Source of the DNA: Minisyncoccota bacterium
GTDB taxonomy: Bacteria > Patescibacteriota > Minisyncoccia > 2-02-FULL-40-12 > IGHO2-12-FULL-4
DNA: 54,712 nt
Assembly: GCA_036517795.1 (NCBI GenBank)
Contig: DATDTF010000024.1
Span: 1 to 54,712, forward strand
Direction of reading: 5' to 3'
Positions 7,853 to 53,522 of the stretch are shown piece after piece (position 1 is the stretch's first letter; every line of letters starts with the position of its first letter). The notes under the pieces are model-generated. The model was given only the letters and a program-made list of their open reading frames with translations, was not told the DNA's origin and searched no databases. A program made the position numbers and the translations under genes.

Positions 7853-7867
7853 AGCCGACGGCTATTG

Positions 7868-22064: not shown

Positions 22065-22099
22065 TTTCACCTCTTTCCTTATTGTCAAAGAATACATTG

Positions 22100-22128
22100 T
22101 TTATAATAAAGTTTTTACTGTGTGTCAA
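22100..22128 (-). promoter_or_regulatory. Sigma70-type promoter for the ThDP-enzyme/SDR operon (TTGACA-N17-TATAAA)
   Basis: Minus-strand TTGACA = 22128-22123; TATAAA = 22105-22100. Confidence 0.55.
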
Positions 22129-22130
22129 TA

Positions 22131-22159
22131 TTGTATTTTGATAAAAATGTAGCTATGTT
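22131..22159 (+). promoter_or_regulatory. Possible divergent promoter for the 3-dehydratase gene (TTGTAT-N17-TATGTT)
   Basis: Only a moderate match. GGAG at 22181-22184 precedes the TTG start at 22191. Confidence 0.3.
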
Positions 22160-22190
22160 GTGCCCAGCATGTTGACAAAAGGAGTGTTAA

Positions 22191-25529: not shown

Positions 25530-25531
25530 TC

Positions 25532-38584: not shown

Positions 38585-38588
38585 GGTG

Positions 38589-39302
38589 TTATGCTAATTT
38601 GCACCAGATAAAATAATAATTTCTGGGTTTGGTCGGCCATATTCTTCTTTTTACAGCCCTGTAAATTCTGAACGGATCAGACACTTTTCGGATAAAACTG
38701 AAAACAGTTTTTGGTTCTGCGGTCGCGACCGGTGGTTTAAAACTGAAAACTTCCACAACTCTCAATCCGTTCTTCTCTATCATTTCTTTAAAATCATTTA
38801 TGTTGGTTGACTCCGAATGTTCCTGCAGCAGTATTGAACCGTCCGGTTTTAAAAACTTATGAATATCCTGATAAAATTTTCTGTGGATATTAAAGTTGGG
38901 ATCAAACAGGATGATGTCTTTTTTGTATTCATCTTCGGTCGCGCAAAAAACGTGGGGCGGATTGCCGACGACCAAATCCCATTTTTCTGTTTCCGGAACG
39001 TTGTCCAGGCAGTCGGACAAGTGGGCGGTGACTGTTTTTTCCAGATTATTTTTTTTGATAGTTTTATTGCAGGCCTCAACTGCTTCAGGATTAACATCGG
39101 CTAGGGTTAATTTGTCGCAAAGGTTATTAGCCAGCAATGAAAACCCGATAAATCCTGGTCCGGCGCAGAATTCAAATATGTGGCCGACGTGTCCGAACTT
39201 TTCTTTCACAACAGAAACATACTGTTGCCCGAATCGCATTCCTCCGCCGTGTAGGCTCTTTTTGTATGCGACTTCTATGTTGTTGTATCGGATGTGTTTC
39301 AT
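38589..39302 (-). CDS. SAM-dependent methyltransferase with a (D/N)PP(Y/F/H)-type motif (amino-group methylase class)
   Basis: Motif I FEFCAGPGFIG; motif IV VVGNPPHVF. Confidence 0.65.
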   Translation of the reverse strand: MKHIRYNNIEVAYKKSLHGGGMRFGQQYVSVVKEKFGHVGHIFEFCAGPGFIGFSLLANNLCDKLTLADVNPEAVEACNKTIKKNNLEKTVTAHLSDCLDNVPETEKWDLVVGNPPHVFCATEDEYKKDIILFDPNFNIHRKFYQDIHKFLKPDGSILLQEHSESTNINDFKEMIEKNGLRVVEVFSFKPPVATAEPKTVFSFIRKVSDPFRIYRAVKRRIWPTKPRNYYFIWCKLA

Positions 39303-39346: not shown

Positions 39347-40231
39347 TTATAATTTTATTTCTTCAAAATTTACCATAGGAAAAACATCCAAAAAACTATC
39401 GGGGGTGGCATTGAATATTTTTAGGTCGGGATGGGTTTTGAATGCCTTGGCGTAAAACAACCGGTAATTGCGAAATAATTGCAGTATGTTGGCTATCGTC
39501 ATTTCATAATTAAGTTTTAAATCCTTCGGATCAACATATTTTTTTAGAACTTCGTCGTTTGTACTGTCAAGTTTAGCAATTTCGTCCTCATAGCTGTGGC
39601 TGAATGTTAACGATTTACCATAGCCCATGTTGTGTGATAGAAAGTTGTGCTCACAGCCGAGGAGGTATATTTCGTTGAAACCCATCCATGCTGCAGCCAT
39701 CATGCACATCAAAACCGAATTTTTGGGGTAGGGAACATAGCGGTCAATATCTATGTTGAATGGCAGGTTCTCGGTAAAGATTCCCTGTGTGCCCACATAA
39801 TAAACACGGTGCTGTTTAAACAGGTTATATTTCTCCACAAACGACTTTGCCGCTAGGTTAATAATCACGGTTGTGTCTGTTGATATCTTTCCGTCTTTTT
39901 CTCGTAGACTGCGGGGCCAGTATTCCGTTAAGTCCTCGGTAAAATAAACCGAGTCTGTGATGATGTGGAATTTCGGCCTTAACTTTTTTGCTTGCGTATT
40001 TTTTTCAAATTCAGCCATCACAAAAGTATATTCATTGCTAAGCTTTTCTAAATCAAGGTTACTGACAGACGGACCGTTGCCGATAATAAAGCATCTTTTG
40101 CCGGAATGTATATTCTTAATTTCTAAATTTTTTTTAAGAATATTTCCGTCCCGATAGTTATATAAGCGGGGGGCAAAAAAGTTTCTGTAAAGATAGCTGT
40201 TAATAGATTTTAGTTTGTTTAGAACTTTCAT
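39347..40231 (-). CDS. DUF115 (MptE/Maf-like) protein, candidate nonulosonic-acid transferase
   Basis: CFIIGNGPSVSNLDLEKL ... KFHIITDS ... NSVLMCMMAAAWMGFNEIYLLGCEHNF matches the DUF115 layout. It also resembles my recollection of the GT42 (CstII) VIIAGNGPSL ... GVYMCAVAIALGYKEIYLSGIDFY. Confidence 0.55.
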   Translation of the reverse strand: MKVLNKLKSINSYLYRNFFAPRLYNYRDGNILKKNLEIKNIHSGKRCFIIGNGPSVSNLDLEKLSNEYTFVMAEFEKNTQAKKLRPKFHIITDSVYFTEDLTEYWPRSLREKDGKISTDTTVIINLAAKSFVEKYNLFKQHRVYYVGTQGIFTENLPFNIDIDRYVPYPKNSVLMCMMAAAWMGFNEIYLLGCEHNFLSHNMGYGKSLTFSHSYEDEIAKLDSTNDEVLKKYVDPKDLKLNYEMTIANILQLFRNYRLFYAKAFKTHPDLKIFNATPDSFLDVFPMVNFEEIKL

Positions 40232-40233: not shown

Positions 40234-41160
40234 TTAGTTTCTTATTTTTAAATAGGTTCCAAGGTGTTTGACCTGTTCTTCTGTGGTTAGCAGTTGTTTC
40301 TGGTTGTTTAAAAATGCTTTGACCTGTTTGAAGAGACCGGGTTTAAAATTTGTATCCAGCTCATCTTCCAGGGGGTAGTCTTCTACCACCATACTTCCAT
40401 ATTTTTGTATCTGAAGCTTTTCTAACGGCCGGAACATAAGTTTTGTTTTAGAGGTTATTATCTCTATGCCCCATTTGCCGGCCGACTCCCAATTGGCGTG
40501 ATATGAAAACAAAGCTCCTGTTTCTGATATACCGGCTCCGGAAAACACTGACCCGCCAGGATGCCATTTTAACCCACTCTTTTTATAGGTTGAAAGTTTT
40601 TTTGGCCATCCACCCATAAAAAATGCCATATCAATAACGTGTGAGGAGTTTTGAATAAACCACTCCCGTTTTATCCTGTCTGATTGGGCGAGTTTTTCCA
40701 CTATATAACTCCTTTCGGTAAAATCAAAATAAAAAGATTTAACCCCGCCGTCTTTTTTTATTAAATTCAAAGCGGCCAGAGTAGAGGCGTAAAATCTTCT
40801 GTTGTAGCCAACGGATACTTTTGCTTTTTTGTTTTTTGCTAACTGGGCTACTTTTTTTATATCATCCGTATTCAATCCCCCCGGCTTTTCAACCAATATA
40901 TTTTTACAGCCAGAATTTAGCAACTCTGCAGTGGCTGTTCCAAGCTGGTCTTCGGTTACAGCAATGATGGCTTTGTCGGTAACTTCGTTTTTTTTGAGCC
41001 AACTGCTCAAACCGCCGCTTTCCGCTTTTACACCAATTTCAGCCGTGAAAGTATCAGACGAAACTTGAGATCTGCCGACAACAACAAACGGCAATTTCAT
41101 TGCTTTCAAAACCTTGGCGTATTCTTTGGCCATGTATCCTGCTCCGACAAGTAAAATCAT
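40234..41160 (-). CDS. Gfo/Idh/MocA-family NAD(P) oxidoreductase
   Basis: MILLVGAGYMAKEY Rossmann N-terminus, ILVEKP motif. Confidence 0.7.
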   Translation of the reverse strand: MILLVGAGYMAKEYAKVLKAMKLPFVVVGRSQVSSDTFTAEIGVKAESGGLSSWLKKNEVTDKAIIAVTEDQLGTATAELLNSGCKNILVEKPGGLNTDDIKKVAQLAKNKKAKVSVGYNRRFYASTLAALNLIKKDGGVKSFYFDFTERSYIVEKLAQSDRIKREWFIQNSSHVIDMAFFMGGWPKKLSTYKKSGLKWHPGGSVFSGAGISETGALFSYHANWESAGKWGIEIITSKTKLMFRPLEKLQIQKYGSMVVEDYPLEDELDTNFKPGLFKQVKAFLNNQKQLLTTEEQVKHLGTYLKIRN

Positions 41161-42110
41161 GTGAATGGGTAATGCTTTAATTTAAAATATTTTCTTATGG
41201 GTTCAAATGTCTGAAGATGAAGTCTCGCGGACTCTTTGTAGGTCGGTAAAGAGATTTTGCCGCTATCAAGCAAATTCTCTACAACTGTCGTGGTTAGACG
41301 GCTTTGGTAGGGGAGGTTAAGTTTAACTTCTTCTGTTTTCCAGTCAGGCGCCTTAAAAAGGAGAGCCTTGTTTTGGTTTTCAAATATAGTATATCTTTTT
41401 TCTTCATCAAAAATTTCTAAAATCTTGGGGCTTTGACCACTACTGTCGCATCTGACTATCAGCTGGCTGCCATTTTTGAAGAAGACAGACAGGGAGCCGG
41501 TTGTTTCCAGATAGCCGTTGCGTTTGCTGTTCTTAAGTTTTTTATCAAGCAATCGGGTATCAACATCAAAATCGGTTGAACCGGTCAGAAAAGAAACAAA
41601 GTCAACGTGGTGGATTAAGTCCGTAGCCATTCCCGACTCGTTGCCGTACAGGACGTAGGTAATATTTTTTCCGTCAAACTCTTTCTTTAAATCGGCGTAA
41701 AAAGGCATCATTCTCATTGGACAGTTGACCCATGTTCTGACTTTTTTTATCTCCAGAAGCCGGTCTATTTGAGAGTAATCACTTTTTTTCTGAAAAAGTA
41801 TTTTTTCCAGAATCAGAGACTTAACCTCATTGGTCTTTAATAGTTCTTTGGTGATAGCCGCCCGGGGCCCAGACGAGGTCGCAATTATTGCAACTTCAAA
41901 AGTTAAGTCCCTGGGCATCTTGTTTGAGTATTTCAAAACATGGTTTCCGCCAACCGTGTCCATGGAGTTGTACCTTTCTTTGGCTGTGTTGAGAGAGTCT
42001 GTGGAGTTGTCTACAACCAAGACGTCCAGCGACTCCTTAACGGCTTTTAGGGCTTGAAGGTGTCTGGATCCGATTTGGCCTGCGCCAATAATGCAAACTT
42101 TTTTTGTCAT
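41157..42110 (-). CDS. Gfo/Idh/MocA-family NAD(P) oxidoreductase
   Basis: VCIIGAGQIGSRHLQAL, ILEKI motif; ATGA overlap with the downstream gene. Confidence 0.7.
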   Translation of the reverse strand: MTKKVCIIGAGQIGSRHLQALKAVKESLDVLVVDNSTDSLNTAKERYNSMDTVGGNHVLKYSNKMPRDLTFEVAIIATSSGPRAAITKELLKTNEVKSLILEKILFQKKSDYSQIDRLLEIKKVRTWVNCPMRMMPFYADLKKEFDGKNITYVLYGNESGMATDLIHHVDFVSFLTGSTDFDVDTRLLDKKLKNSKRNGYLETTGSLSVFFKNGSQLIVRCDSSGQSPKILEIFDEEKRYTIFENQNKALLFKAPDWKTEEVKLNLPYQSRLTTTVVENLLDSGKISLPTYKESARLHLQTFEPIRKYFKLKHYPFT

Positions 42111-42112: not shown

Positions 42113-42823
42113 TTAGATTGTTATCTTTCTTTTATTGATTAACTCTCGAACCCGTTCCAGGTCCGCCACAGTGTCAAGGTCAATATTTGAGTCGCTGTCC
42201 ACGTGATATGGAATGGTTTTTGTGGAATAAAGGCGCTCGTCCTTTAAGAAAGTTTTCCTGTCTATGATATAAATTGATCCGCTAGATAAATAAATTTCTG
42301 GTAGAGACTGGCGATTTGCAAAAGGGTATCGGTTGTTGACAGTACCAACTAAGTAGCCCTGCCCGGTTAATTTAAAAGATTTAAGAAGTTTTTTGTCCAG
42401 TTTATATACGCTGATAAGAGCCGTGGCCTTACTGTTCAAAAATTTTTCCAAGGCCCCGTCAATGTCACTTACGGTTCTTAGTGGTGAGGTTGGTTCAAGG
42501 TATATGATAATGTCAGGGGTGTATTTTTTTGTGGACAGTATTTTTAAAGCGTGAGTGAGAGATGGTTCAGGAGATACATTGTCAGTAGCTAGTTCCTTGG
42601 GTCTTTTAATCGTTTCAGCGCCATATAGCTTGGCGGCGGCTAAAATTTTTTTGTCTTGGGAAGACACAACGATTTTGTCAATATATTTTGATTTCTTAGC
42701 CTCATCAATCGTCCAGGCTATAAGCGGTTTTCCATTAAGATCAACAATGTTTTTGTTGGGTATGCCTTTTGATCCGCCACGGGCAGGAATGAAGGCTAAA
42801 ATTTTTTTGGGTTTTATGCTCAT
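42113..42823 (-). CDS. Acylneuraminate (CMP-nonulosonate) cytidylyltransferase, paralog 1
   Basis: AFIPARGGSKGIPNKNI and LEPTSPLR signatures of the CMP-NeuAc/CMP-Kdo synthetase family. Confidence 0.8.
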   Translation of the reverse strand: MSIKPKKILAFIPARGGSKGIPNKNIVDLNGKPLIAWTIDEAKKSKYIDKIVVSSQDKKILAAAKLYGAETIKRPKELATDNVSPEPSLTHALKILSTKKYTPDIIIYLEPTSPLRTVSDIDGALEKFLNSKATALISVYKLDKKLLKSFKLTGQGYLVGTVNNRYPFANRQSLPEIYLSSGSIYIIDRKTFLKDERLYSTKTIPYHVDSDSNIDLDTVADLERVRELINKRKITI

Positions 42824-42938: not shown

Positions 42939-44000
42939 ATGATTCTTGCAACTTGCAGAAATCTAGGTGGATTGAATCAAGTTCTTCCAGCTACTAAAGA
43001 GTTAAGGAGGCGAGGCTATGGAGTTGTTATTGCTACTAATGGAAGAGTTGTCGCAGAATCCCTTTCTGCCCAAATGGAACCATTTATCTTTGCCGATTCT
43101 CCTTTATTTATACTGGATGCTGTCCGTAACGTTAACTTGTTTTTTACCAGTACGTGTTTTGGGGGAATCGGTAGAAAGTTAATCACCGATGCTTCTCTAG
43201 GTTGTCCGAAGATCGTCTTGCAGGATTTCTGGGGAGCGGGAGTTTTTACAGATTGGAGAGAAGTCCGATATAGGCCTGATTACATATGCGTGAACGATCA
43301 GGTTGATTCCGAGATTACCCAAAAGGCGTGGCCCGAATTTGATAAAAGCAAGATAAAGGTTACCGGTTATTCAGCGTTTGATAAATATATCTTGGTTGAT
43401 GTGAAATCTCAACAGGAACTGGTTTTTTCAAAGCTGGGCTTAGACTCGCGCAAGAAAATGGTTCTGTTTGCGGGTCATGCTTATGGAACTGTTGGCGCAC
43501 TCTTTGAATTGGTCAAAGTTTTAAATGACGTCCAAGCTGGTATTTATCTGGTTGTCAGATTTCATCCAAGGATGACAGAACATGAAGGCGGGGATAAAGA
43601 AAAGTTAGATTGTCTGGACATCCTTACTGATTTTAGGGGAGGGGATTTGGTCAAGGATACGACAATGTTTGATAGTCCTACAGTTCTGAGTGCGGCTGAT
43701 GTGGTTATTAGTATGTATAGTACAATGCTTGTTGAGGCGGCGGTTTTGCGGAAGCCAAATATTTCTATCTTGTACCCGGACAAAGGTATGCGGCAATTTT
43801 TCTCCGAGTGTCCCGGATTAGATGAGTCTCCTTTGGTTTCTTTGGGCTGTAGCCTAAAAGCAACAAATCGGGAGGAGTTGGAGTTGGCTGTAAGGGACGC
43901 TCTAAAAAGAAATTCTCTGTTAAGAATACAGGAAAACAGTTTTAAACTAGACGGTATGAATACCAATCGGATTGTAAACTTTTTAGAGAGCTTAATATAA
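42939..44000 (+). CDS. Hypothetical GT-B-fold-like protein (MurG/LpxB/2-epimerase-like C-terminal motif), family unassigned
   Basis: 353 aa. C-terminal SAADVVISMYSTMLVEAAVLRKPNISILY resembles the donor-binding helix region of GT-B enzymes. It is a single-gene unit with its own promoter and terminator. Confidence 0.35.
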   Translation: MILATCRNLGGLNQVLPATKELRRRGYGVVIATNGRVVAESLSAQMEPFIFADSPLFILDAVRNVNLFFTSTCFGGIGRKLITDASLGCPKIVLQDFWGAGVFTDWREVRYRPDYICVNDQVDSEITQKAWPEFDKSKIKVTGYSAFDKYILVDVKSQQELVFSKLGLDSRKKMVLFAGHAYGTVGALFELVKVLNDVQAGIYLVVRFHPRMTEHEGGDKEKLDCLDILTDFRGGDLVKDTTMFDSPTVLSAADVVISMYSTMLVEAAVLRKPNISILYPDKGMRQFFSECPGLDESPLVSLGCSLKATNREELELAVRDALKRNSLLRIQENSFKLDGMNTNRIVNFLESLI

Positions 44001-44013
44001 GCTCTCTTTTTTT
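43985..44013 (+). terminator. Intrinsic terminator of the 42939 gene
   Basis: AGAGAGCTTA-ata-TAAGCTCTCT: perfect 10-bp stem containing the TAA stop, followed by TTTTTTT. Confidence 0.8.
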
Positions 44014-45175
44014 AAATGAGCTTTATGTCCCGAAACTGTTTTTGGACTATTCCTCCCCAGACTTTATTTTGGGTCAAAATCTTTAAAAAGTTTTTTTGGC
44101 TTTTTCCATAGCCAAACATTTTTACCGGTTTAAAACGATTTGTCGTTGATAAACTTTTTGCTAACTCCAAGATTTTTGTTTTGCTAAAGTTACAATTAAA
44201 TATACTTTCTACTCCGGTAATTCTTTTGTACTGCCTTGTCCCCAAGTTGATTGTCGGGACTCCATAGTAAGGAGCTTCTCTTATGCCGGCGCTTGAGTTA
44301 CCGATTATGAAACTCGCATTTTTTAACAGGGTAAGAAAGTGTTCAAAGCGAATTGACGGAAATATCTTAAATTTTGAGTTATTTGTCAGCTTTTTTGCAT
44401 AAACACTTCTTATCGTGTCAGTACCGGGATCATTGCTGGGATGAATTACTATATAGTTAAGATTAGATTCAAGCAGGGCCTGTACCAAGGTGTCAGTTTG
44501 ACTATTAAGAGTATCAAGTTCGGTTGTGACTGCGTGATGTGCCAAGATAGAGTATTTATTGTAAGAAATCCCATACCGTTTTTTTGTCTCTTTTAAGGTG
44601 GGCAGATTTTTTGAGAGCATTATATCAATATCTGGAGAGCCGATTGTAAATATGCTCTTGGGATATTCGCCCATTTGTATCAACCTTTTGCGCGCTTCTC
44701 CATTGGCTACAAAATGCAAGTGCGACACCTTGCTTATCGCGTGGCGTATATGTTCGTCTATGGTGCCGGATATTTCCCCGCCTTCAATGTGGGCTACGGT
44801 AATATTTTGAAAACTACCCGCTAAAGCCCCGGCAAGGGCTTCCACCCTGTCACCATGAACAATAATCAGGTCGGGTTTGAATTCCTTAACATAGTTGCCG
44901 AACCCAATGAGCGTGCTTGCCATTACGGACTCCATTGAGGAATTGCCGGAGTGATTAATGTATTTATAAATGTTGGGGAACCCTTCTTTTTCTATTTCAT
45001 CTACCGTGTAACCATATTTAGATAACATGTGCATTCCTGTGGCAAAAACATGAACGTCAAATTTGTGGTTTTTTGACAGCCCTCTTATGAGTGATTTTAT
45101 TTTACCGAAATCCGCCCGTGTGCCGGTCAGAAAAACAACCCTTTTTTTCTTTGTATCTTTTATATATTTTTCCAT
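44012..45175 (-). CDS. neuC: UDP-N-acetylglucosamine 2-epimerase, hydrolysing (NeuC/LegG type)
   Basis: VVFLTGTRADFGKIKSLI, IVHGDRVEALAGA and HIEGGE motifs. Confidence 0.85.
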   Translation of the reverse strand: MEKYIKDTKKKRVVFLTGTRADFGKIKSLIRGLSKNHKFDVHVFATGMHMLSKYGYTVDEIEKEGFPNIYKYINHSGNSSMESVMASTLIGFGNYVKEFKPDLIIVHGDRVEALAGALAGSFQNITVAHIEGGEISGTIDEHIRHAISKVSHLHFVANGEARKRLIQMGEYPKSIFTIGSPDIDIMLSKNLPTLKETKKRYGISYNKYSILAHHAVTTELDTLNSQTDTLVQALLESNLNYIVIHPSNDPGTDTIRSVYAKKLTNNSKFKIFPSIRFEHFLTLLKNASFIIGNSSAGIREAPYYGVPTINLGTRQYKRITGVESIFNCNFSKTKILELAKSLSTTNRFKPVKMFGYGKSQKNFLKILTQNKVWGGIVQKQFRDIKLI

Positions 45176-46200
45176 TTTAGTTGGTCGTCTTTTTTAATTT
45201 GTATTTTTGCTGTTCGGCCGATCAGTTTTTTGTAGTCAACAGCTTTTATTTCTCCTGTGCCGGGTCTTTTGACCCAAATGTTGGCTCGGGTTAATTTTTC
45301 GCCTTTTTGAATGTCTTGAATTGCGACCACGCAGGCATAAGCAAAGTTAATGGTGGGTTGTTCTTCCGGTAGTTTTGTTTTGGTGCCGTTGCGGGCGGCA
45401 AATATCGCTCGGGAACCAAGTATCAGTTCACTCAACTCATGCGGGTCAATTGATATCGGAACATCCGGTCCCGGCCAGCTTTTGTCAGATGTAAAATGTT
45501 TTTCCAGAATAGAAGCCTCTAACGCAACGGCACCGAAACAAGTGTAGTTGCCTAAGGAATGGTCGCTTAATCCGATGACAGCATCTGGAAATGTTCTGGC
45601 CATTTGTCTAATTGAACCTAGTCGTACCTTTTCATATGGCGTGGGATACATAGATGTACAGTGCAGGAGTGCGTAAGGTATTTTATGTCGGCGTAGAATA
45701 GCTACGCTTTTTTTAATGCTTGGGATATCATTCATTCCGGTACTTAAGATGACGGGCTTGTCAAATTTAGCGATATGTTCAATGAGCGGATAGTTATTAC
45801 ATTCGCCCGAACCAATCTTGAATGACAACACCCCCATTTTGTTTAAACGATCTGCGGCTGCCCGTGAGAATGGAGTTGATAGGAATATCATGCCCAGTTT
45901 CTCCGTATATTTTTTAAGTTCAATTTCTTGTTTCTCCGTTAAAGCGCAACGCCGCATAATGTGCCAGATTGATTCTTTGGCGTTGCCGGGAATGACATTC
46001 TTGGCTTGCGGAATCATCTCATCTTCAATAACATGGCTCTGGAACTTTACACATTCAGCTCCGGCTTTTTGGGCGTCAAAAACCATTTGTTTGGCTTTGA
46101 CCATGTCACCCTCATGGTTGATGCCGATTTCGGCGATTACAAGCGGGGGATGGGCTGGCCCAATTTTTCTTCTCCCAATTTGTATAAAATTATTTGCCAT
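45160..46200 (-). CDS. neuB: Nonulosonic acid synthase (N-acetylneuraminate synthase NeuB/LegI/PseI family) with C-terminal SAF domain
   Basis: PLVIAEIGINHEGD, KFQSH and GLSDHS, plus C-terminal VVAIQDIQKGEKLT. ATG 46200 (TAATG overlap with the upstream stop) is preferred over track GTG 46206. Confidence 0.85.
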   Translation of the reverse strand: MANNFIQIGRRKIGPAHPPLVIAEIGINHEGDMVKAKQMVFDAQKAGAECVKFQSHVIEDEMIPQAKNVIPGNAKESIWHIMRRCALTEKQEIELKKYTEKLGMIFLSTPFSRAAADRLNKMGVLSFKIGSGECNNYPLIEHIAKFDKPVILSTGMNDIPSIKKSVAILRRHKIPYALLHCTSMYPTPYEKVRLGSIRQMARTFPDAVIGLSDHSLGNYTCFGAVALEASILEKHFTSDKSWPGPDVPISIDPHELSELILGSRAIFAARNGTKTKLPEEQPTINFAYACVVAIQDIQKGEKLTRANIWVKRPGTGEIKAVDYKKLIGRTAKIQIKKDDQLKWKNI

Positions 46201-46991
46201 TACCACGCCGTCCAGCCGCCATCTTGCATGAATATCCCTCCGGTGCAGTATGACGAGCTGTCGGAAATTAAATATATGATAAGTCCTACATATTCTTCGG
46301 GTCTCGCCATCCTTCCTAGTGGGGTTCGATACGAATAATTTTTAATAAAATCTTTTGACTGTTTTTCTTGAACGCCTCCCGGAACAACGCAATTTACCCT
46401 GATCTGCTTTGGTCCCCAGGCAGTTGCCAAATATTTGGTCAGGGAAATAACGGCTCCCTTGCTTACGCTGTAACTGACTGGTTTGAAAATTCCTTTCGGA
46501 TAGATTCTTTGGTCGGGGCCGACGACGCCGTAAGTAGAGGAAATATTGATGATAGATGACCCCTTTTTCATTTTACTGCCAAAGACCTGACAGCAAAGCA
46601 TTGTTCCGGTTACGTTTACCTCCATATCCTTGTTCCAGCGTGAGAGTTCAAAATCTTCAAAGCGGTCGGTTTTCTTAAGGTTTTCGGCTCGGGCTGTAAT
46701 GGCCGCGTTGTTGATAAGGCCATCAACTTTACCAAACTTTTTCAAAATCTTGTTTTTCGCACTGACAAGCTCTTGTTTTTGGGAAATATCAACTTTGTAG
46801 TAGTGGATATTTCGACCGTATTTTCCAATAGATTTAATATAATCCAAGGCTTGTTGTTCCGGGGTTATGTCCAATAAAATGACCTGCGCTTCATGGGAGG
46901 CCATGGCCTTGGCATAGACCTTGCCCAGCATTCCCATGCCGCCGGTTAAAATAATGACCTTGCCCGATATGTCAAAATGTTTTTTGTCCAT
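46200..46991 (-). CDS. Classical short-chain dehydrogenase/reductase
   Basis: LTGGMGMLG, NNAA and YSVSKGAV (YxxxK). Confidence 0.75.
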   Translation of the reverse strand: MDKKHFDISGKVIILTGGMGMLGKVYAKAMASHEAQVILLDITPEQQALDYIKSIGKYGRNIHYYKVDISQKQELVSAKNKILKKFGKVDGLINNAAITARAENLKKTDRFEDFELSRWNKDMEVNVTGTMLCCQVFGSKMKKGSSIINISSTYGVVGPDQRIYPKGIFKPVSYSVSKGAVISLTKYLATAWGPKQIRVNCVVPGGVQEKQSKDFIKNYSYRTPLGRMARPEEYVGLIIYLISDSSSYCTGGIFMQDGGWTAW

Positions 46992-47000
46992 TTGTTTAAT

Positions 47001-47903
47001 TTATATTTTCTTTATTTTTTCTATTATACCCAAGTCTCTTATGGCTTGGTCTAGGCTTAAGATTGAAGGTATTTTTTCTTTTCTTGCAGAAACAAGCGTG
47101 GCAAATTTAAGTTCATTGATAAAAGTGTCGTTTCGTTCAAATTCAAACTTTTTATTGTAAGTTGGTTTGTTGTTTTCATCGAATATTTTCAGGTCCTTAT
47201 TGATAAGATCACAGAAAATCGTTCCTTTCTCGGCGTGAATTTTTATATAGCGTTCCGGTAATCTCTGAAAATAATTTAAAGTTATAACGATGTTTTTGTT
47301 TTTTTGAATAAAAACCAGCAGGCCCATATCTTCGCTTCTTATTTTTAGGTGGCTAATCTTGGCCCAATATCCCGAGATTTTTTTAATTGGATCTGGAAAA
47401 AGAAATTGGGCATAATTGGTTTCATGTATTAATTCTCTAAGAACTCCACCGCCTAATTTTTTATTGGCCGAATAATTTTTGGTATAATCGCTGGTTCTCC
47501 AGCTGGGCAAATAGCTGCCGCAATGTATCTGAACTAGGTGGATATCACCAAATTTATTTGTTGTCAGGATTTTTTTTAATTCATTTATCATCGGGTGGAA
47601 AATCATGGTGTAGCCGACAAACGCTGATTTGTTTTTTAACATTTTTTTAATCTTTTTGGCCTCGGCTGAATTCATTGCCAGTGGCTTCTCAAACATAAAA
47701 GTATCGCTGTAATCTCTGAACCGCAACGCATCTTTATAGTGGTCTTTTGTTTTTGACGCAATGATAATCAGGTCATATTTTTTTTGTTGAAACTTGCTTT
47801 TTTTGTGCAAAGATTGAACTTCAGCCGAGTGTCCTAAAGTCAGGCAATTCTCGTAGTGCCTTTTGCCGGCCGACCCGAAACCGATTATGCCTACATTTAT
47901 CAT
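47001..47903 (-). CDS. Gfo/Idh/MocA-family oxidoreductase
   Basis: VGIIGFGSAGKRH, FEKP. Confidence 0.65.
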   Translation of the reverse strand: MINVGIIGFGSAGKRHYENCLTLGHSAEVQSLHKKSKFQQKKYDLIIIASKTKDHYKDALRFRDYSDTFMFEKPLAMNSAEAKKIKKMLKNKSAFVGYTMIFHPMINELKKILTTNKFGDIHLVQIHCGSYLPSWRTSDYTKNYSANKKLGGGVLRELIHETNYAQFLFPDPIKKISGYWAKISHLKIRSEDMGLLVFIQKNKNIVITLNYFQRLPERYIKIHAEKGTIFCDLINKDLKIFDENNKPTYNKKFEFERNDTFINELKFATLVSARKEKIPSILSLDQAIRDLGIIEKIKKI

Positions 47904-48622
47904 TTAAATAATTTAAATTTTTGTTTAATTTTACTTCTATGCTTGTAGAGCGTCTCCGCCAGTATCCAATCCTCTACGTGGTCTAAATCTATTGATCTCC
48001 AGCGCGGCATAATAACACCAACGGTGTCCTTGGTCACAAATTTTTTATGTTTAAGGAAAAAATCAGTTTTTAACATGTAAACCATCGCTCCATTTTCAAT
48101 ATAGCCCTTTGGCCAGGCTTGTCTGTTGGTGCTATTACTATTCTGCTTATTGACTAAATAAATTTTGCCTTTCGAGTCTCGGTTATACAGTCTGGGGTGA
48201 GTTTCGCATATTGTGCATAACAATTTTACGTTCGGCTTTATTATTTCTTTGTAGCACGTTTTTATGTCATCAACCTCTCTTAATGGCGAAGTGGTTTGTA
48301 AGAGACAGAATATTTCAGGTTTATAATTAAATTTTTTGTCCAGCCTGTGTAATAAGAGTTCAACTGAATCAGCAATTTTTGCCGTATCAGTGGCCAGATG
48401 AGCCGGTCTCAAGAATGGAACTTCAGCGCCACCTTTGATTGCTATCTCGGCTATTTCTCGGTCATTTGTATCAACTATTACCTTGTCAAATAAGTTGCTT
48501 TTATGGGCTTGATAGATAGCATGCCAAATCAAAGGCTTGCCGGCGAATATGCGGATATTTTTGTTTGGGATTCCCTTTGAACCAGAGCGGGCCGGTATTA
48601 TTGCAAGGTTTTTTTTCTTCAT
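47900..48622 (-). CDS. neuA: Acylneuraminate (CMP-nonulosonate) cytidylyltransferase, paralog 2
   Basis: AIIPARSGSKGIPNKNI, LQTTSPLR. ATG 48622 (MKKKNL) lies directly after the upstream stop and is preferred over track 48652. Confidence 0.8.
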   Translation of the reverse strand: MKKKNLAIIPARSGSKGIPNKNIRIFAGKPLIWHAIYQAHKSNLFDKVIVDTNDREIAEIAIKGGAEVPFLRPAHLATDTAKIADSVELLLHRLDKKFNYKPEIFCLLQTTSPLREVDDIKTCYKEIIKPNVKLLCTICETHPRLYNRDSKGKIYLVNKQNSNSTNRQAWPKGYIENGAMVYMLKTDFFLKHKKFVTKDTVGVIMPRWRSIDLDHVEDWILAETLYKHRSKIKQKFKLFK

Positions 48623-48624
48623 TC

Positions 48625-49839
48625 TTAGGTAACCTGGTGGCGCAACTGCCACTCTTTATTATTATTTTTTTTCCATAGATGCGGAGAACGGCCGGCGTCT
48701 ATAAGTTTCCAAAATTTATCTTTACTGATGCCGGTATAATTCAGAAATTCCTGAAAGTATTTATCCGGGAATTCGGTGTCAAACCTTTTTACAAGAGCTA
48801 CCCCTTCTTCGCGTGTGATTTTTTTATTTCTTATTTCTTGAGCCGCGTCATAGGATGCTCGGCCAATTCCGAATTTAATTAATGTGGTGTAATAGTGAAA
48901 AGCATCAACCTTGTCGTCAATACTGCTATATTTTGAGTAACTTCCCTCGGTTCTTTCGGTGTTTGCCTGAAAGCCGGTGTTTTCTGAGGCGTAGTAGTAA
49001 CACTCTTGCGGGTCCCATTTCAAGTAATAGCCTAGGCAGTGCACCTGGATATCTAGTTTTTTAGCCTCCTTTACTTTTATCGGTAGATAGGGATTCAAGT
49101 CGTTTAAAGAGATTTTTTTATTAGCCAGCAGACTTTTAGCGGAAACTCCTCCCAGAAAGAGGTTGTCGAGGGTGACATCTTCGGTATAAAATTTAGAATT
49201 CATAGTGGGTACATCGTTTTCTTTGAATTTGTTGCCGTATTCGGCTCCATACTCGCCATAAAAGATGAGGGGAATCTTGTAGAGGACGGCAAATTTTGGC
49301 CCCGAATTTTTTTGGCCAATGATGAACGGCTGAAAAGGGTGCAACAAGTTTTCAAATGCCAATTTTGTAAGCAGGCGGTGAACGATGCCGTTTGGTGTAA
49401 ACAAAATATTGTCTAAGCCGCCTATATGCATCCAATTTGTAAAATTTTTCCAGCCGATATCGGTATAAAGATGTGGAGCCCATGTAACGGTCAGGGGATT
49501 CATCCCGTATTTATATTTCAAGATGTGTGCGGTGTAGGCGCTGTCTTTTCCGCCACTACCGGGAACAATGCAGTCATAGTAGCCATTTTTGCTCCTGTAC
49601 TTATCACATAATTTTATTAATTCTTTTTCTCTTGTTTTCCAATTTATCCCTCGATCTTTATACTCGGTGTATCTGCAAGCGTCGCAAACCCCACCTTCTC
49701 CAAAAGCAATCGTTTCCTTTTTCTCGTTTTTTGTGTGTTTAAATTCTACGGTTGAACTGGGCCGCTGATTAGATATGACGCATTTCTTACAGAAAATAAC
49801 CTCTTTCGGTAAACCATATTTTGTGTTTGTTTTTGGCAT
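48625..49839 (-). CDS. N-acetyl sugar amidotransferase (PP-loop ATPase; WbuX/PseA/LfnA family)
   Basis: N-terminal Cys-rich CKKCVISNQRPS...CDAC and PP-loop VPGSGGKDS. Confidence 0.8.
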   Translation of the reverse strand: MPKTNTKYGLPKEVIFCKKCVISNQRPSSTVEFKHTKNEKKETIAFGEGGVCDACRYTEYKDRGINWKTREKELIKLCDKYRSKNGYYDCIVPGSGGKDSAYTAHILKYKYGMNPLTVTWAPHLYTDIGWKNFTNWMHIGGLDNILFTPNGIVHRLLTKLAFENLLHPFQPFIIGQKNSGPKFAVLYKIPLIFYGEYGAEYGNKFKENDVPTMNSKFYTEDVTLDNLFLGGVSAKSLLANKKISLNDLNPYLPIKVKEAKKLDIQVHCLGYYLKWDPQECYYYASENTGFQANTERTEGSYSKYSSIDDKVDAFHYYTTLIKFGIGRASYDAAQEIRNKKITREEGVALVKRFDTEFPDKYFQEFLNYTGISKDKFWKLIDAGRSPHLWKKNNNKEWQLRHQVT

Positions 49840-49856
49840 AATTTAGAAAATGGTTC

Positions 49857-50492
49857 TTAGATAAGTTTGATAAAGTTTTTTATTATTTTCAAGCCTACAT
49901 CTCCGCTTTTTTCCGGATGGAACTGGCAACCGTATATGTTACCATTGCGGAGTGCAGACGGAAAGATATGGCCGCCATATTCGCTGAAAGCCAAAATATC
50001 ATTCTTGTCCTTAGGCTGAAATATGAAAGAATGCACAAAGTAAACTGTAGAATTTTTGCTGATGCCCTCCAGCACCGTTTTCACCCAGTTTTTATTTGTC
50101 GGCTTCATAAGATTATTCCAGCCAAAATGGGGGGTCTTGAAGTTTGCGTTCATTGCCGGAAAGGGCACAACTTTGCCGGGTATCAAGCCAAGTCCCTTGA
50201 ATGTTCCAAATTCGCGACCCTCCTGAAGCATTAACTGTGCGCCCAGACAGATTCCTAGCATGGGCTTGCCGGAACTGGCGAATACTTGCAGGGGTTGAAT
50301 CAGACCACGCCGTCGGAGGCCATCCATGCCGGCCTGAAATGCTCCTGTTCCCGGCAGTACTACTGCGTCGGCTTTGGCTAGTATTGCCGGGTCTTCTGTG
50401 ATAATGGCGGGTGTTTTGAGTTTAGCGAAAGCCTTGGCTATGCTATGCAGGTTATTTACGCCGCAATCAATTATGGCAATTTTCTTCTTCAT
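49857..50492 (-). CDS. hisH: HisH-like glutamine amidotransferase subunit (WbuY-type, glycan amidation)
   Basis: IAIIDCGVNNL, GICLGAQ (catalytic Cys) and FHPEKS. Confidence 0.8.
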   Translation of the reverse strand: MKKKIAIIDCGVNNLHSIAKAFAKLKTPAIITEDPAILAKADAVVLPGTGAFQAGMDGLRRRGLIQPLQVFASSGKPMLGICLGAQLMLQEGREFGTFKGLGLIPGKVVPFPAMNANFKTPHFGWNNLMKPTNKNWVKTVLEGISKNSTVYFVHSFIFQPKDKNDILAFSEYGGHIFPSALRNGNIYGCQFHPEKSGDVGLKIIKNFIKLI

Positions 50493-51253
50493 TCAGTTCT
50501 TATTTTTATTTTTTTACTGGACAAATAATTTTTAAGATTTTTTATTGACAAATCACCGTAGTGAAATACTGTTGAGGCGGAAATAGCGTCCGGGTTGCAT
50601 GTCATATACGCATCGCTGAAAGATTTAAATGTTCCTCCTCCCCCATGGATAACTACCGGAACTTTTGAGAATGAGGTGACGGCTTTGCAGAGGTCGGTGT
50701 CGTAGCCTTTTCTGGTGCCGTCAGCATCAATCGAAGTTAAGAGTATTTCCCCAATGCCTTGCTGAATTGCTTGTTTTATCCATTTAATGGCATCAAGGCC
50801 GGTCTTCTCTCGTCCGCCGTCTGTATAGGCCTCCCAAGAGTTGGGGCTAACCTTCTTAGCTTCAACCGAAAGAACGATGCATTGAGCGCCAAAGGTCCGC
50901 ACAGCTTCACGCAAGAACTGGGGGTGCCTAATGGCATAGGTATTTATGGCAACTTTGTCAGCGCCGGCTCGCAAGACGTTGTTTATGTCATGAATTGAGC
51001 GAATACCGCCACCTACCGTCAGTGGGATAAACACTTCCGAAGCAACCGACCTCAACAACTCTAGATCAAGGTTGCGTTGATAAAGACTGGCCACTATATC
51101 CATGTAAAAAATTTCATCTGCTCCGTCTCTGTAATACTTTTTAGCTAATTTTATTGGTTCACCGACGACTCGAAGTCCTTCGGTGTGTATACCTTTGACC
51201 ACGTTGGGACCCTTGATGTCTAATCGGGGAATTATGCGTATGTTTTTAGGCAT
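50489..51253 (-). CDS. hisF: HisF-like cyclase/synthase subunit (WbuZ-type, glycan amidation)
   Basis: IIPRLDIKG, LTVGGGIR and HGGGG motifs; ATGA overlap with hisH-like. Confidence 0.8.
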   Translation of the reverse strand: MPKNIRIIPRLDIKGPNVVKGIHTEGLRVVGEPIKLAKKYYRDGADEIFYMDIVASLYQRNLDLELLRSVASEVFIPLTVGGGIRSIHDINNVLRAGADKVAINTYAIRHPQFLREAVRTFGAQCIVLSVEAKKVSPNSWEAYTDGGREKTGLDAIKWIKQAIQQGIGEILLTSIDADGTRKGYDTDLCKAVTSFSKVPVVIHGGGGTFKSFSDAYMTCNPDAISASTVFHYGDLSIKNLKNYLSSKKIKIRTE

Positions 51254-51260: not shown

Positions 51261-51288
51261 ATATTAACTCAATACCCAATAGTATCAA
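51261..51288 (-). promoter_or_regulatory. Promoter of the hisF-like operon (TTGATA-N16-TAATAT), with ATG 7 nt after the -10
   Basis: Minus-strand TTGATA = 51288-51283; TAATAT = 51266-51261. No SD. Confidence 0.5.
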
Positions 51289-51310
51289 TAAGTGTCAAAA
51301 GGTGTCAACT
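51281..51310. repeat. Three 10-bp-phased direct repeats aGTaTCAAta / aGTgTCAAaa / gGTgTCAAct (TTGAYAC on the minus strand)
   Basis: Exact 10-bp period. The promoter-proximal copy doubles as the -35. Confidence 0.85.
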
Positions 51311-51355: not shown

Positions 51356-52402
51356 ATGCAAAAAGTCGCCATTATAATTCCAACAATGAACCGTCCTGAT
51401 TTCATCTTCAGGCATTTTGAATTTTATGAATTAATGAATAGTCCCCACCCCATCTATGTTTCAGACAGTAGTAACGAAGAAAATGCGCAAAGAATAAGGG
51501 ACGGGATTAAACGATTTAAAAATCTAAACATAACTTATCAATGGGTTCCACCCGGTAAAGACTGTTTGTACCAGCTGATGCCCTTGATAAAGGAAAAATA
51601 TTGTATGCAAATCGGAGACGACGATTTGGTTATACCGAAAACTGTTTCAGAATGTGCAGATTTTTTGGAAGATCATCCTGACTATGCAACTTGTTCTGGC
51701 AAGCAGATCAACGTTCGTTTCCGGCAAGAAGATTATAATAAGTTCCGAGGCCTTCTTGGTCGGGCAACGCTTCCCATGGGCAGGTCAATGGAAGATGAAG
51801 ATATGCTGGCGCGGGTCAAAAATTTTTGGTCCGACCCGAATTTTATATGTTTTGCCGTAACAAGAACCGAGATAGAGACAAAAATACGCAATGTTACCAA
51901 ACATTTTTTACTTATGGAGACAATTACAGAGGTTATACTGTGGTCTATGCTGATTGTTTATGGAAAAGCGAAAATTATTGATAAGCTGGGGTACATTATG
52001 CAAATAAGCAACAATCGCAGCTTTTCAACTGATCTTGCGATTGATGTTTTGCTGGCGCCGTCAATCAAAGAGAAATGGGGAGCTTGCCAGAATGGGTTAT
52101 CTGAACTTTTGCTGGGACTGGGTGTCTCCAGCGAAGAGAGCAGGAACATATCCAAATGGATTTTCATTCTTTACTTGGCAAACAAATTTACCTATGAGAC
52201 CAGCTGGCGGTCATATGGTTTTCCCAAGAATGCCTCTGCAAAACAAGAATCATCCAAAAAAATAAGGTATTTTGTTGCGCATTTGCCTTTGCTTAAAAAA
52301 ATGTATTACAAATTTAAACCCCCGCAGGATGCCACCAGACCGGAGTCCAAATATTTCAGCGATTTTAAAATTGTTAAAGATTTTTTGGAAGAGAATCGGT
52401 AA
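51356..52402 (+). CDS. GT-A-like glycosyltransferase-domain protein, paralog A
   Basis: VAIIIPTMNRPDF, YVSDSS, QIGDDDLVIP (DXD). About 30 percent identical by eye to the convergent neighbour. Confidence 0.55.
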   Translation: MQKVAIIIPTMNRPDFIFRHFEFYELMNSPHPIYVSDSSNEENAQRIRDGIKRFKNLNITYQWVPPGKDCLYQLMPLIKEKYCMQIGDDDLVIPKTVSECADFLEDHPDYATCSGKQINVRFRQEDYNKFRGLLGRATLPMGRSMEDEDMLARVKNFWSDPNFICFAVTRTEIETKIRNVTKHFLLMETITEVILWSMLIVYGKAKIIDKLGYIMQISNNRSFSTDLAIDVLLAPSIKEKWGACQNGLSELLLGLGVSSEESRNISKWIFILYLANKFTYETSWRSYGFPKNASAKQESSKKIRYFVAHLPLLKKMYYKFKPPQDATRPESKYFSDFKIVKDFLEENR

Positions 52403-53483
52403 AGGAGTCCATCACCGGCTTGAAGTCTTTGTAATACTGGGACCCGGTTCTTAGCACTTCATAGTGCATTTCTTTCGTGTGTTTTATTTGCGGTTTTATA
52501 TGGGCCCGGTAAAGGTTTTTCAAAAAAGGGAGCACACTGACGACATAAGGTTTGATAAAACAAAGAAGATGCCAATAAAAAGGCAGTTCTTTTTTTAAGG
52601 GATAGTGGCCTCTATATTCTTTCACAAGCCGAGGTCCAAGATATCCTAAAAAAGATTGTCGTATAATTTTTGTCGCTTCTTCAAGGGGTATTTTGTCTTT
52701 TTCAGCTAGACTTTTGGATAATGTTTGTTCAAAAATAGTGTAGGATTCACGCCAATCCAATTGTGTGACCCAGTCAAATTCGCCGGGTAATAAAAAATGG
52801 CTGTCATGAATCTGTCTCACAAAACCAAGGCAATCAAGTATTTTTGATTTTCCGGATATTAGCGGTAGGGAGGTGGGTATTATTTCTCCTCGGAACGAAC
52901 GGTCACGGACACTTAAGCCATTTTGCCAATAATTTGCCAGGCCGGCCGTCCTGTTAACTGAAAAATGGGTTACAAAATATGTATTAAAAAAATGCCTTAT
53001 CCTTTCTGCTCCCGTGTTTTCTTCAATCTGTTGTCTCGGATAGTCTGCCAAGCGCTTAAGTTGTCCATATGGTCCGCTTTGCTTCAGACGAAAACTAACC
53101 GCATACCCGCTGGCTGACGAGTAATCATCGTTGGCTTCCAGAAATTCTATGCACTTGGTTATAGAGTCGGGAATTTGGTAGTCGTCGTCGCCACTATAGC
53201 AAATATACCTTTCCCGCACCTCTTTGATTAGGTGGTAGTGTGCTTGTAAATTGTCAAATTCCGGAAGGTAATAATATTTTGCTTTTATGGCGTTGCCAAG
53301 TTTTTTTATCTCATTCTCTATCTTTTCCGATTCTTCTTTTGGGCTGGAGTCGCCGATATAAATAGTGTGCTGGCATTGGACCGAGGCATAATAGCGAAGT
53401 TGTCGGATAACAAAATCAACCCGATTCATGGTAGGTATGAATATTCCGGCTTTTAAGTTTTCGTTTGGTAATGTTTTGTTCAT
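52374..53483 (-). CDS. GT-A-like glycosyltransferase-domain protein, paralog B
   Basis: GIFIPTMNRVDF, YIGDSS, YSGDDDYQIP. ATG 53483 (MNKTLP) is preferred over track TTG 53522, which lies inside the repeat array. Confidence 0.55.
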   Translation of the reverse strand: MNKTLPNENLKAGIFIPTMNRVDFVIRQLRYYASVQCQHTIYIGDSSPKEESEKIENEIKKLGNAIKAKYYYLPEFDNLQAHYHLIKEVRERYICYSGDDDYQIPDSITKCIEFLEANDDYSSASGYAVSFRLKQSGPYGQLKRLADYPRQQIEENTGAERIRHFFNTYFVTHFSVNRTAGLANYWQNGLSVRDRSFRGEIIPTSLPLISGKSKILDCLGFVRQIHDSHFLLPGEFDWVTQLDWRESYTIFEQTLSKSLAEKDKIPLEEATKIIRQSFLGYLGPRLVKEYRGHYPLKKELPFYWHLLCFIKPYVVSVLPFLKNLYRAHIKPQIKHTKEMHYEVLRTGSQYYKDFKPVMDSFTDSLPKNL

Positions 53484-53493
53484 TCCTAATTCT

Positions 53494-53522
53494 ATGTTAT
53501 GCAAAGTATCAAAAAGTATCAA
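53494..53522 (-). promoter_or_regulatory. Promoter for paralog B (TTGATA-N17-TAACAT), with ATG 10 nt after the -10
   Basis: Minus-strand TTGATA = 53522-53517; TAACAT = 53499-53494. Confidence 0.4.

Follow-up and report, generated by a model that had tools for sequence, protein, structure and literature searches.

The 54,712-nt contig DATDTF010000024.1 of a Minisyncoccota bacterium (GenBank assembly GCA_036517795.1), referred to here as the window, carries on its minus strand (44012–51253) an eight-gene operon that combines enzymes of nonulosonic (sialic-like) acid synthesis with a three-gene amidotransferase module. We propose, with about even confidence, that the operon makes a cytidine monophosphate (CMP)-activated neuraminic-type sugar with an acetamidino group at position 5, 'CMP-Neu5Am' or a close derivative. 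The pairing of the amidotransferase WbuX with NeuA, NeuB and NeuC is not special to this organism but constitutes a widespread six-gene cassette. The first-pass annotation of the locus had left two branches open, an amidinated neuraminic-type sugar or early pathway steps encoded elsewhere. The placement of NeuB and NeuC and the lack of early genes in ~74 kb of contiguous sequence (the 54.7-kb contig and ~19 kb past its right end) favour the former branch, short of proof, with remote early genes remaining as a rival.

Organization of the operon

Eight intact open reading frames (ORFs), all on the minus strand, were found exactly where they had been placed by the first-pass annotation, and hidden Markov model (HMM) scans bore out the identity proposed for each. 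In the direction of transcription, they encode a HisF-like, WbuZ-type partner of the amidotransferase (50489–51253; HMM and comparison with Legionella); a HisH-like glutaminase, the ammonia donor (49857–50492; TIGR01855 and triad motifs); a PP-loop N-acetyl-sugar amidotransferase of the NASAT/WbuX family, assigned to a subfamily that we denote window-type (48625–49839; TIGR03573 and motifs); a LegF/PtmB-like CMP-nonulosonate synthetase, hereafter paralogue 1 (47900–48652; PF02348); a Gfo/Idh/MocA oxidoreductase homologous to PtmF (47001–47903; Pfam GFO domains); a classical short-chain dehydrogenase/reductase (SDR) resembling PtmA (46200–46991; adh_short_C2); the Neisseria-type nonulosonic acid synthase NeuB, which includes a SAF domain (45160–46206; PF03102 and PF08666); and the hydrolysing UDP-HexNAc 2-epimerase NeuC of a clade that we call type A (44012–45175; TIGR03568).

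The genes are packed in an operon-like manner. HisF and HisH overlap by 4 nt, WbuX and the CMP-transferase by up to 28, the CMP-transferase and the oxidoreductase by 4, the SDR and NeuB by 7, and NeuB and NeuC by 16, so that only two gaps, of 17 and 9 nt, occur inside the operon. The arrangement is not a product of chance, because the closest WbuX relatives adjoin genes for NeuB, NeuC, a CMP-transferase, HisF and HisH on the same strand in 60 of 80 loci (see below). A promoter-like site on the minus strand (51279–51308; TTGACA-16/18-GATACT/TACTAT), identified by consensus match only, falls within the 102-nt divergent intergenic region upstream of HisF. At the other end, a hairpin with a 10-bp stem followed by a T-run (43985–44007), likewise a consensus match only, lies where NeuC and a plus-strand glycosyltransferase gene converge and likely marks the end of the operon. 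The promoter and terminator scans as a whole returned close to what shuffling would give (48 sites versus 36 ± 5.5), and both sites are best read as suggestive.

The amidotransferase trio

WbuX scores 372 bits on TIGR03573 (cut-off 203) and displays an SGGKDS PP-loop and a CxxC...GxCxxC tetracysteine zinc motif (CKKC, GVCDAC). Its nearest characterized relative is the amidotransferase of Legionella pneumophila (PDB 8WEX), with 58% identity over 419 residues by BLASTP and 544 bits by phmmer; the Legionella sequence was rebuilt from the 8WEX alignment and matched to a database entry, after which the L. pneumophila locus was fetched. The Escherichia coli WbuX/Y/Z proteins, originally cited as the model for this trio, are not close kin: identity to WbuX of E. 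coli O145 is ~29% and extends across ~120 residues only. HisH reaches 200 bits on TIGR01855 (cut-off 105), its Cys/His/Glu triad motifs GICLGAQ and FHPEKS are legible in the translation, and it is 45% identical to HisH of the Legionella lipopolysaccharide (LPS) operon. The HisF-like protein, 48% identical to its counterpart from the same operon, scores 287 bits on the hisF model and 257 bits on the WbuZ model, slightly below both cut-offs.

The Legionella LPS operon (ORF28–22), dedicated to the 5-acetamidino-7-acetamido form of legionaminic acid (Leg5Am7Ac), has the order NASAT–HisF–HisH–NeuA–NeuB–NeuC–PglD-like–aminotransferase on one strand and thus shares with the window the core from NASAT to NeuC. 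ORF28 has been regarded as a homologue of PtmG that converts CMP-Leg5Ac7Ac to CMP-Leg5Am7Ac, and the amidine has been assigned to N5 of the CMP-nonulosonate (PMC3766260); the paper on 8WEX gives no substrate for the Legionella enzyme (PMC10607449). In contrast to the window, the Legionella operon contains acetyltransferase and aminotransferase genes directly after NeuC, Leg-type NeuB and NeuC and a NASAT of ~440–460 aa, and has no PtmF- or PtmA-like genes. Taken together, the linkage and the similarity point to a nonulosonate rather than a hexosamine as the predicted acceptor of the window trio.

NeuB and NeuC group apart from legionaminic and pseudaminic enzymes

NCBIfam equivalog models were tried as a classifier of neuraminic (Neu) and legionaminic (Leg) enzymes and rejected. 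On TIGR03569, Neisseria meningitidis NeuB, scored without its termini, obtained 399.4 bits against a cut-off of 399.65, and a synthase from a Leg context 445. On TIGR03568, the window NeuC obtained 401 bits (cut-off 236), but Leg-context epimerases score equally high, all epimerase types falling between 360 and 458. Because neither model separates the types, automatic names are uninformative on Neu versus Leg, and the window proteins were therefore compared with enzymes of known product, types being assigned by neighbour-joining and best-hit classification.

The window NeuB is 57% identical to NeuB of N. meningitidis (425 bits) and 52% identical to the Neu-pathway enzyme of Moritella viscosa, the sequence of the latter being taken from a machine-read, imperfect supplement text of PMC7371886. 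Identity drops to 32% for the biochemically verified legionaminic acid synthase (LegI) of L. pneumophila, 34% for the Leg-type enzyme of Vibrio vulnificus, 32–34% for those of Vibrio and Aliivibrio (A. salmonicida) and for Bacillus subtilis SpsE, and 30% for a pseudaminic (Pse)-type enzyme; NeuB of E. coli O145, which belongs to another Neu clade, is 36% identical. The Legionella synthase groups with the Leg-type enzymes of Vibrio and Aliivibrio. Named relatives at 72–74% identity come from Yanofsky-, Sung- and Giovannonibacteria and from Paceibacterota.

Residue-level comparison agrees with this affiliation. A loop of NeuB has been linked to specificity for C4–C6 of the sugar (PMC7371886), and in the window protein this loop is nearly identical to that of Neisseria, with 'VIPGN' and Asn74 (Neisseria numbering) retained. 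By contrast, in sister loci that contain a 4,6-dehydratase gene, position 74 is invariably His ('VIPGH' or a close variant). Position 184, where Ser is described as the Pse state (PMC7371886), was rejected as a marker, given that the window NeuB has Ser despite being clearly Neisseria-like, and was treated as uninformative.

In a neighbour-joining tree, NeuC shares a coherent clade with NeuCs of plain NeuA–NeuB–NeuC triads (from a Yanofskybacteria genome and Geomonas) and of six-gene cassettes; the 5XVS/Legionella-like group, found together with Leg-type synthases, branches separately. Identity of the window protein to Legionella NeuC (LegG) is 32%, with values of 32–35% across the set formed by the Legionella protein, E. 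coli O145 NeuC, human GNE and Acinetobacter baumannii 5XVS; the similarity to N. meningitidis SiaA is remote (46 bits). Matches to PDB entries, considered as an alternative classifier, were not decisive (197 bits for 5XVS and 190 for human GNE), and two sister-type epimerases favour opposite ones of these entries, by margins of only 30–47 bits. Overall, both NeuB and NeuC lie outside the groups that verified enzymes delimit for legionaminic and pseudaminic acid, a placement that the first-pass annotation had singled out for checking.

Diamino-sugar genes are missing from ~74 kb

The sequence was extended to the right through a Joint Genome Institute (JGI) contig overlapping the window by 2,087 bases at 100% identity. 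The reported lack of a dehydratase/aminotransferase/acetyltransferase set holds across the window and this extension: no LegB or LegC protein was detected at cut-off, family HMMs recovered no hexapeptide (PglD/NeuD/LegH-like) acetyltransferase, and no PtmE-like CBS-nucleotidyltransferase was found. The possibility that the early genes lie just outside the window is thereby excluded for the ~19 kb past its right end.

The family HMMs detected two DegT-family genes only in the ~74 kb. Alignment to the aminotransferases of Legionella and Cohnella shows that His occupies the site of the Schiff-base Lys in both proteins (SFYASH and STYFGH versus SFNGNK), which rules them out as a hidden LegC or PseC. 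Replacement of the catalytic Lys by His identifies these DegT homologues as the 3-dehydratase type (RfbH/ColD kind), and both are accordingly assigned, from their predicted active sites, to other deoxysugar routes. Each is the centre of a deoxysugar module, one at 19180–23408 of the window and the other in the extension (L001:337–3730 and 6713–8860). One module includes an acetolactate-synthase-like thiamine enzyme and the other includes pyruvate dehydrogenase (PDH)-E1 alpha/beta-like subunits and a B12-radical-SAM C-methyltransferase, a gene content that suggests branched-chain or C-methylated dideoxy sugars. At 24471–26431, ~20 kb from the trio, lies a gene for an FnlA-like protein (52% identity to FnlA of E. 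coli O145; 395 bits, cut-off 730), with genes for an RmlD-like reductase and a methyltransferase after it; homologues of FnlB and FnlC were not found in the window or the ~19 kb beyond. These genes probably specify a 6-deoxy-L-HexNAc (RhaNAc/PneNAc-type) route.

Predicted route and accessory enzymes

Judging by homology, NeuC would hydrolyse and 2-epimerize UDP-N-acetylglucosamine (UDP-GlcNAc) to N-acetylmannosamine (ManNAc), NeuB, like the Neisseria enzyme, would combine ManNAc with phosphoenolpyruvate to give N-acetylneuraminic acid (Neu5Ac), and the CMP-transferase would use cytidine triphosphate (CTP) to convert Neu5Ac to CMP-Neu5Ac. As far as gene identities go, the first-pass annotation was right to regard NeuC, NeuB and NeuA as a complete Neu5Ac-type route. 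The chemistry attributed to the family implies that the PP-loop amidotransferase would then adenylate the acetamido carbonyl and exchange its oxygen for ammonia, which HisH would free from glutamine and, assisted by the HisF-like partner, deliver; no in vitro demonstration of this chemistry for any NASAT member was found in the literature. The Neu5Ac pathways of N. meningitidis (SiaA/SiaC/SiaB) and M. viscosa resemble the window operon in comprising three enzymes that start from UDP-GlcNAc and in the sugar-binding loop of NeuB, but differ in that they lack the amidotransferase trio.

The remaining operon genes resemble genes typical of legionaminic acid clusters. CMP-transferase paralogue 1 (86 bits on PF02348; 168 bits on the PseF model, below its cut-off of 206) is 33–36% identical to NeuA of Legionella and E. 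coli O145. A second CMP-transferase, paralogue 2, is encoded on the minus strand outside the operon (42113–42823; PF02348, 84 bits), and the NeuA proteins of most cassette loci are closer to this cassette-type enzyme than to paralogue 1. The operon oxidoreductase is 35–38% identical to proteins from Campylobacter and Aliarcobacter, one of which is named 'Glucosamine-6-P synthase, isomerase subunit PtmF'. Among PDB entries, it matches best, though weakly (≤35 bits), 6Z3B/6Z3C and E. coli YjhC (6O15); these are sialic-acid (2,7-anhydro-Neu5Ac) oxidoreductases and provide a hint only. The SDR scores 169 bits on adh_short_C2 and, weakly, 116 bits on the FlagModPtmA model (cut-off 350). The resemblance to the Campylobacter ptm/leg region that the first-pass annotation had noted is thus borne out, more firmly for the oxidoreductase than for the SDR.

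The flagellin glycosylation (ptm-leg) region of Campylobacter jejuni and C. coli presumably comprises PtmA, PtmB/LegF, PtmF, LegI, LegG and PtmG, along with PseA accompanied by HisH and HisF. The window has genes of similar kinds, with a PtmF homologue, an SDR that matches the PtmA model weakly and a Maf-like gene close by. Campylobacter is also said, on the authority of Schoenhofen and colleagues in 2009, to possess LegB, LegC, LegH and PtmE and to use GDP-linked intermediates, whereas the window lacks LegB/C/H and PtmE and has a Neisseria-type NeuB. The same study reportedly assigned PtmF and PtmA to the formation of glucosamine-6-phosphate (GlcN-6-P) from fructose-6-phosphate; if so, both genes are agnostic about the final sugar. 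In the window, the PtmF- and PtmA-like proteins may likewise supply the route with GlcN-6-P, the role reported in C. jejuni, or may re-tailor a hydroxyl of the sugar.

A six-gene cassette and two amidotransferase subfamilies

To delineate the distribution of the cassette, the 80 loci encoding the closest WbuX homologues (63–79% identity to the window protein) were collected from reference genomes, with one genome per species. In 60 of these, WbuX, HisF, HisH, NeuB, NeuC and a CMP-transferase are encoded within 9 kb on one strand; the other 20 are mostly on short contigs. Cultivable carriers of the cassette include Geomonas paludis Red736, Roseivirga echinicomitans KMM 6058, Vibrio brasiliensis LMG 20546, Methylophilus sp. 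Leaf416 and Sporomusa sp. KB1. The 80 loci span more than ten phyla, namely, Patescibacteria, Desulfobacterota, Bacteroidota, Planctomycetota, Pseudomonadota, Bacillota, Verrucomicrobiota, Acidobacteriota, Gemmatimonadota, Chlorobiota, Fibrobacterota and others. Among the NeuB-like ORFs of the fetched loci (L005–L087), 72 of 83 are of the Neisseria type. Window-type NeuC is found in 46 loci, about half of which have no aminotransferase, dehydratase or acetyltransferase gene within 10 kb, and a DegT gene is directly adjacent in only three of the 46. Such a distribution fits a self-contained, presumably mobile cassette whose route would start from the universal precursor UDP-GlcNAc. We found no paper on this cassette or on nonulosonates in Patescibacteria.

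A separate, Legionella-type NASAT subfamily consists of proteins of roughly 434–474 residues that carry a C-terminal insertion; identity to the Legionella enzyme is 77–88% among the members listed and ~76% (~440 aa) in two loci compared. Three non-Legionella members that were inspected, from Geotalea, Vampirovibrio and Cohnella, reside in legionaminic-type clusters that encode a Lys-type DegT aminotransferase, a PglD-like hexapeptide acetyltransferase, a PtmE-like nucleotidyltransferase, a Leg-type NeuB and a 5XVS-type NeuC, with a dehydratase gene visible in the Geotalea and Cohnella clusters. Both subfamilies co-occur in a Saccharibacteria locus (L014:8617–19800), where a window-type set and a Legionella-type set lie within 12 kb, each with its own type of amidotransferase, the latter set containing the 76% identical NASAT, a Leg-type NeuB, a hexapeptide acetyltransferase, a Lys-type DegT and a dehydratase. 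These patterns suggest, for the window-type subfamily, a sugar substrate different from legionaminic acid. We tentatively extend this, at somewhat less than even confidence, to the prediction that the subfamily is dedicated to neuraminic acid and that the cassette makes CMP-5-acetimidoylamino-neuraminic acid in all of these phyla.

Two variants of the arrangement were observed in the survey. In a Vicinamibacterales locus (L073:1–16700), two amidotransferase trios occur in tandem, one with a Leg-type NeuB and the second with a NeuB of the Neisseria type, after which come genes for a GMD-like dehydratase and a DegT protein. In the sister loci from Patescibacteria and Saccharibacteria (L008:7815–17900, L009:8597–16100, L012:8455–15000 and L014:8617–14900), HisF–HisH–WbuX–NeuB are joined by a NeuC of a different clade, an SDR and a PseB-like 4,6-dehydratase, with no aminotransferase, and NeuB has His in place of Asn74. 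In gene content, these four loci resemble a pathway for a 9-deoxy, mono-amino nonulosonate with a 5-acetamidino group, similar to fusaminic acid.

Alternative products

Several observations weigh against a neuraminic-type product. The NCBIfam models fail to separate Neu from Leg enzymes, and Neu5Ac synthases do not form one clade, the E. coli O145 enzyme being of another type; a large phylogenetic study of NeuB likewise found Neu and Leg intermixed. A few Neisseria-type NeuBs, such as that of L073, adjoin dehydratase and aminotransferase genes, so the clade need not be specific for ManNAc. Among the enzymes compared, no verified UDP-GlcNAc-specific epimerase lies inside the type A clade of NeuC, and our literature search turned up no glycan structure containing Neu5Am. 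The most serious competitor, which we nonetheless regard as unlikely, is an ordinary Leg5Am7Ac locus in which NeuC and NeuB act as LegG and LegI and the genes for UDP- or GDP-N,N'-diacetyl(diNAc)-bacillosamine lie elsewhere in the genome. The best argument for it is the PtmF/PtmA/LegF-like triad, a hallmark of legionaminic clusters that has been described as a PtmA–LegF–PtmF trio in Plesiomonas, Vibrio fischeri and E. coli (PMC4481668). Moreover, the closest characterized amidotransferase comes from a Leg5Am7Ac operon, and Legionella combines the same NASAT–HisF–HisH–NeuA–NeuB–NeuC core with a dehydratase encoded far from the LPS locus (PMC3766260), so there is precedent for distant early genes.

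However, the window NeuB and NeuC each share just 32% identity with LegI and LegG of Legionella, for which conversion of UDP-diNAc-bacillosamine to legionaminic acid has been demonstrated (Glaze et al., 2008, as cited in PMC3766260), and group instead with Neisseria-type NeuBs and triad NeuCs. Legionella keeps the aminotransferase and acetyltransferase genes adjacent, whereas the ~74 kb examined here contain neither. Finally, full legionaminic clusters go with Legionella-type rather than window-type NASATs, and the PtmE-like gene is missing. Were legionaminic acid the product after all, the operon would be one more Leg5Am7Ac locus.

A second alternative, in our estimate distinctly improbable, is that the trio amidinates N5 of a different mono-amino backbone, either a 9-deoxy sugar of the fusaminic kind, involving the FnlA-like and RmlD-like proteins, or an epimer of Neu5Ac, involving the PtmF-like protein and the SDR. 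Fusaminic acid of Fusobacterium nucleatum, 5-acetimidoylamino-3,5,9-trideoxy-nonulosonic acid, is an existing mono-amino nonulosonate of this type (Fus5Am) and in this respect resembles the product proposed here, indicating that 5-acetimidoyl groups are not restricted to 5,7-diamino sugars. The sister loci, in which genes for a PseB-like dehydratase and an SDR separate NeuC from the CMP-transferase and an aminotransferase gene is lacking, are compatible with such a backbone, and in the window one SDR and three Gfo/Idh/MocA genes have no assigned step. Yet fusaminic acid, being a 9-deoxy sugar, needs a 4,6-dehydratase and fits the sister loci better than the window operon: those loci use a different NeuC clade and an N74H NeuB, in contrast to the Asn and triad-type NeuC of the window, where the operon does not include the dehydratase.

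Still less probable is that the trio amidinates another N-acetyl sugar, for which the 6-deoxy-L-HexNAc predicted from the FnlA-like and RmlD-like genes at 24471–26431 would be the candidate, while plain Neu5Ac is made alongside. The precedent is E. coli O145, beside which Pseudomonas aeruginosa O12 has also been named. Searches of E. coli genomes by blastn with window, Vibrio or Legionella DNA gave no match, and the O145 cluster was located by walking the RM13514 chromosome, where the order is galF–nnaD–neuB–neuA–neuC–wzx–wzy–hypothetical gene–wbuX–hisH–hisF2–fnlA–fnlB–fnlC. Like the window, this cluster, the only chemically characterized one examined to do so, includes both neuBAC and amidotransferase/HisH/HisF genes, and the O antigen contains Neu5Ac and N-acetimidoyl-L-fucosamine (L-FucNAm), the amidine residing on L-FucNAc; the FnlA-like window protein with the RmlD-like reductase next to it strengthens the parallel. 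Unlike in the window, the O145 WbuX is remote and the WbuZ is of the AglZ/HisF2 type (29%), the trio abuts fnlABC, and wzx, wzy and the hypothetical gene separate it from neuBAC. In the window, by contrast, the trio is translationally coupled to the CMP-transferase, NeuB and NeuC, and the FnlA-like gene lies 20 kb off on the other strand without FnlB or FnlC homologues; most cassette loci have no FnlA-like genes. There is next to no chance that HisF and HisH are ordinary histidine-biosynthesis genes upstream of the sugar operon by accident: although the HisF-like protein prefers the true hisF model and HisH passes the hisH equivalog cut-off, no further his gene is present in the 74 kb, the same pair accompanies WbuX in the 60 cassette loci and the Legionella LPS operon, and E. 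coli O145 retains its own hisH/hisF besides the cluster copies.

The first-pass annotation knew of no description of an amidinated neuraminic-type sugar, but CMP-Neu5Am, the product that we favour, is not wholly undescribed: a 2026 preprint reports mass spectrometry (MS) peaks consistent with a putative CMP-Neu5Am pool in C. jejuni (10.64898/2026.04.20.719630). According to the same preprint, the amidine reverts to acetyl, yielding Neu5Ac, on acid/1,2-diamino-4,5-methylenedioxybenzene (DMB) work-up, which would explain why Neu5Am has been overlooked.

Genomic neighbourhood

The operon is embedded in what is nearly all glycan machinery, extending over the entire contig (1–54712) and at least 19 kb beyond, with about a dozen GT4/GT2 genes, GT39-like and O-antigen-ligase-like membrane proteins, an ABC exporter and heptose genes. 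Several neighbours are candidate transferases for the nonulosonate. Convergent with NeuC is a plus-strand gene (42939–44000) whose product weakly matches the BFO_1060 family (49 bits, cut-off 200) and Glyphos_transf. Downstream of the operon, on the minus strand, CMP-transferase paralogue 2 is followed by two further Gfo/Idh/MocA oxidoreductases (40234–42110; HMM) and an MptE/Maf-like protein, a possible nonulosonate transferase (39347–40231; PF01973, 28.5 bits, below the gathering score). This block is conserved at 53–66% identity in Patescibacteria locus L008, which holds the MptE/Maf-like homologue at the same position. Adjoining the Maf-like gene, at 35980–39302, are genes for a NodU-like carbamoyltransferase, a polysaccharide deacetylase and a HemK-like methyltransferase, possibly involved in further glycan tailoring.

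On the other side of the operon, two divergent paralogues of the TIGR04440 glycosyltransferase family are encoded (51356–52402, plus strand, and 52374–53522, minus strand; 134 and 157 bits, cut-off 70), and a homologue lies directly upstream of HisF in L008, L012 and L014. Transfer of the amidinated sugar may be the task of the TIGR04440 protein; in the proposed scheme, the TIGR04440 pair and the BFO_1060-like and Maf-like proteins would attach the zwitterionic sugar to a surface glycan or protein. The two loci with the highest WbuX identity (79% and 76%), and all those in which synteny extends across ten genes, belong to Patescibacteria genomes, and near-identical contigs are present in four metagenomes. 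By these criteria the host is probably a member of the Patescibacteria, although the sequence contains no marker gene.

Implications

Surface charge, recognition by phages and lectins, and immune evasion are all influenced by sialic acids and related bacterial sugars. The acetamidino group cancels the negative charge of the sugar, so that Neu5Am, if indeed produced, would be net-neutral (zwitterionic). For a host with a reduced genome, the glycan gene load of the contig would represent a very large investment. If the proposed route is correct, many environmental bacteria, host-attached Patescibacteria with reduced genomes among them, would make a chemically distinct sialic acid, and part of the 'Neu5Ac' recorded in routine acid/DMB surveys could be the amidine. 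The two amidotransferase subfamilies would then provide a simple genomic marker to distinguish Neu-type from Leg-type amidination.

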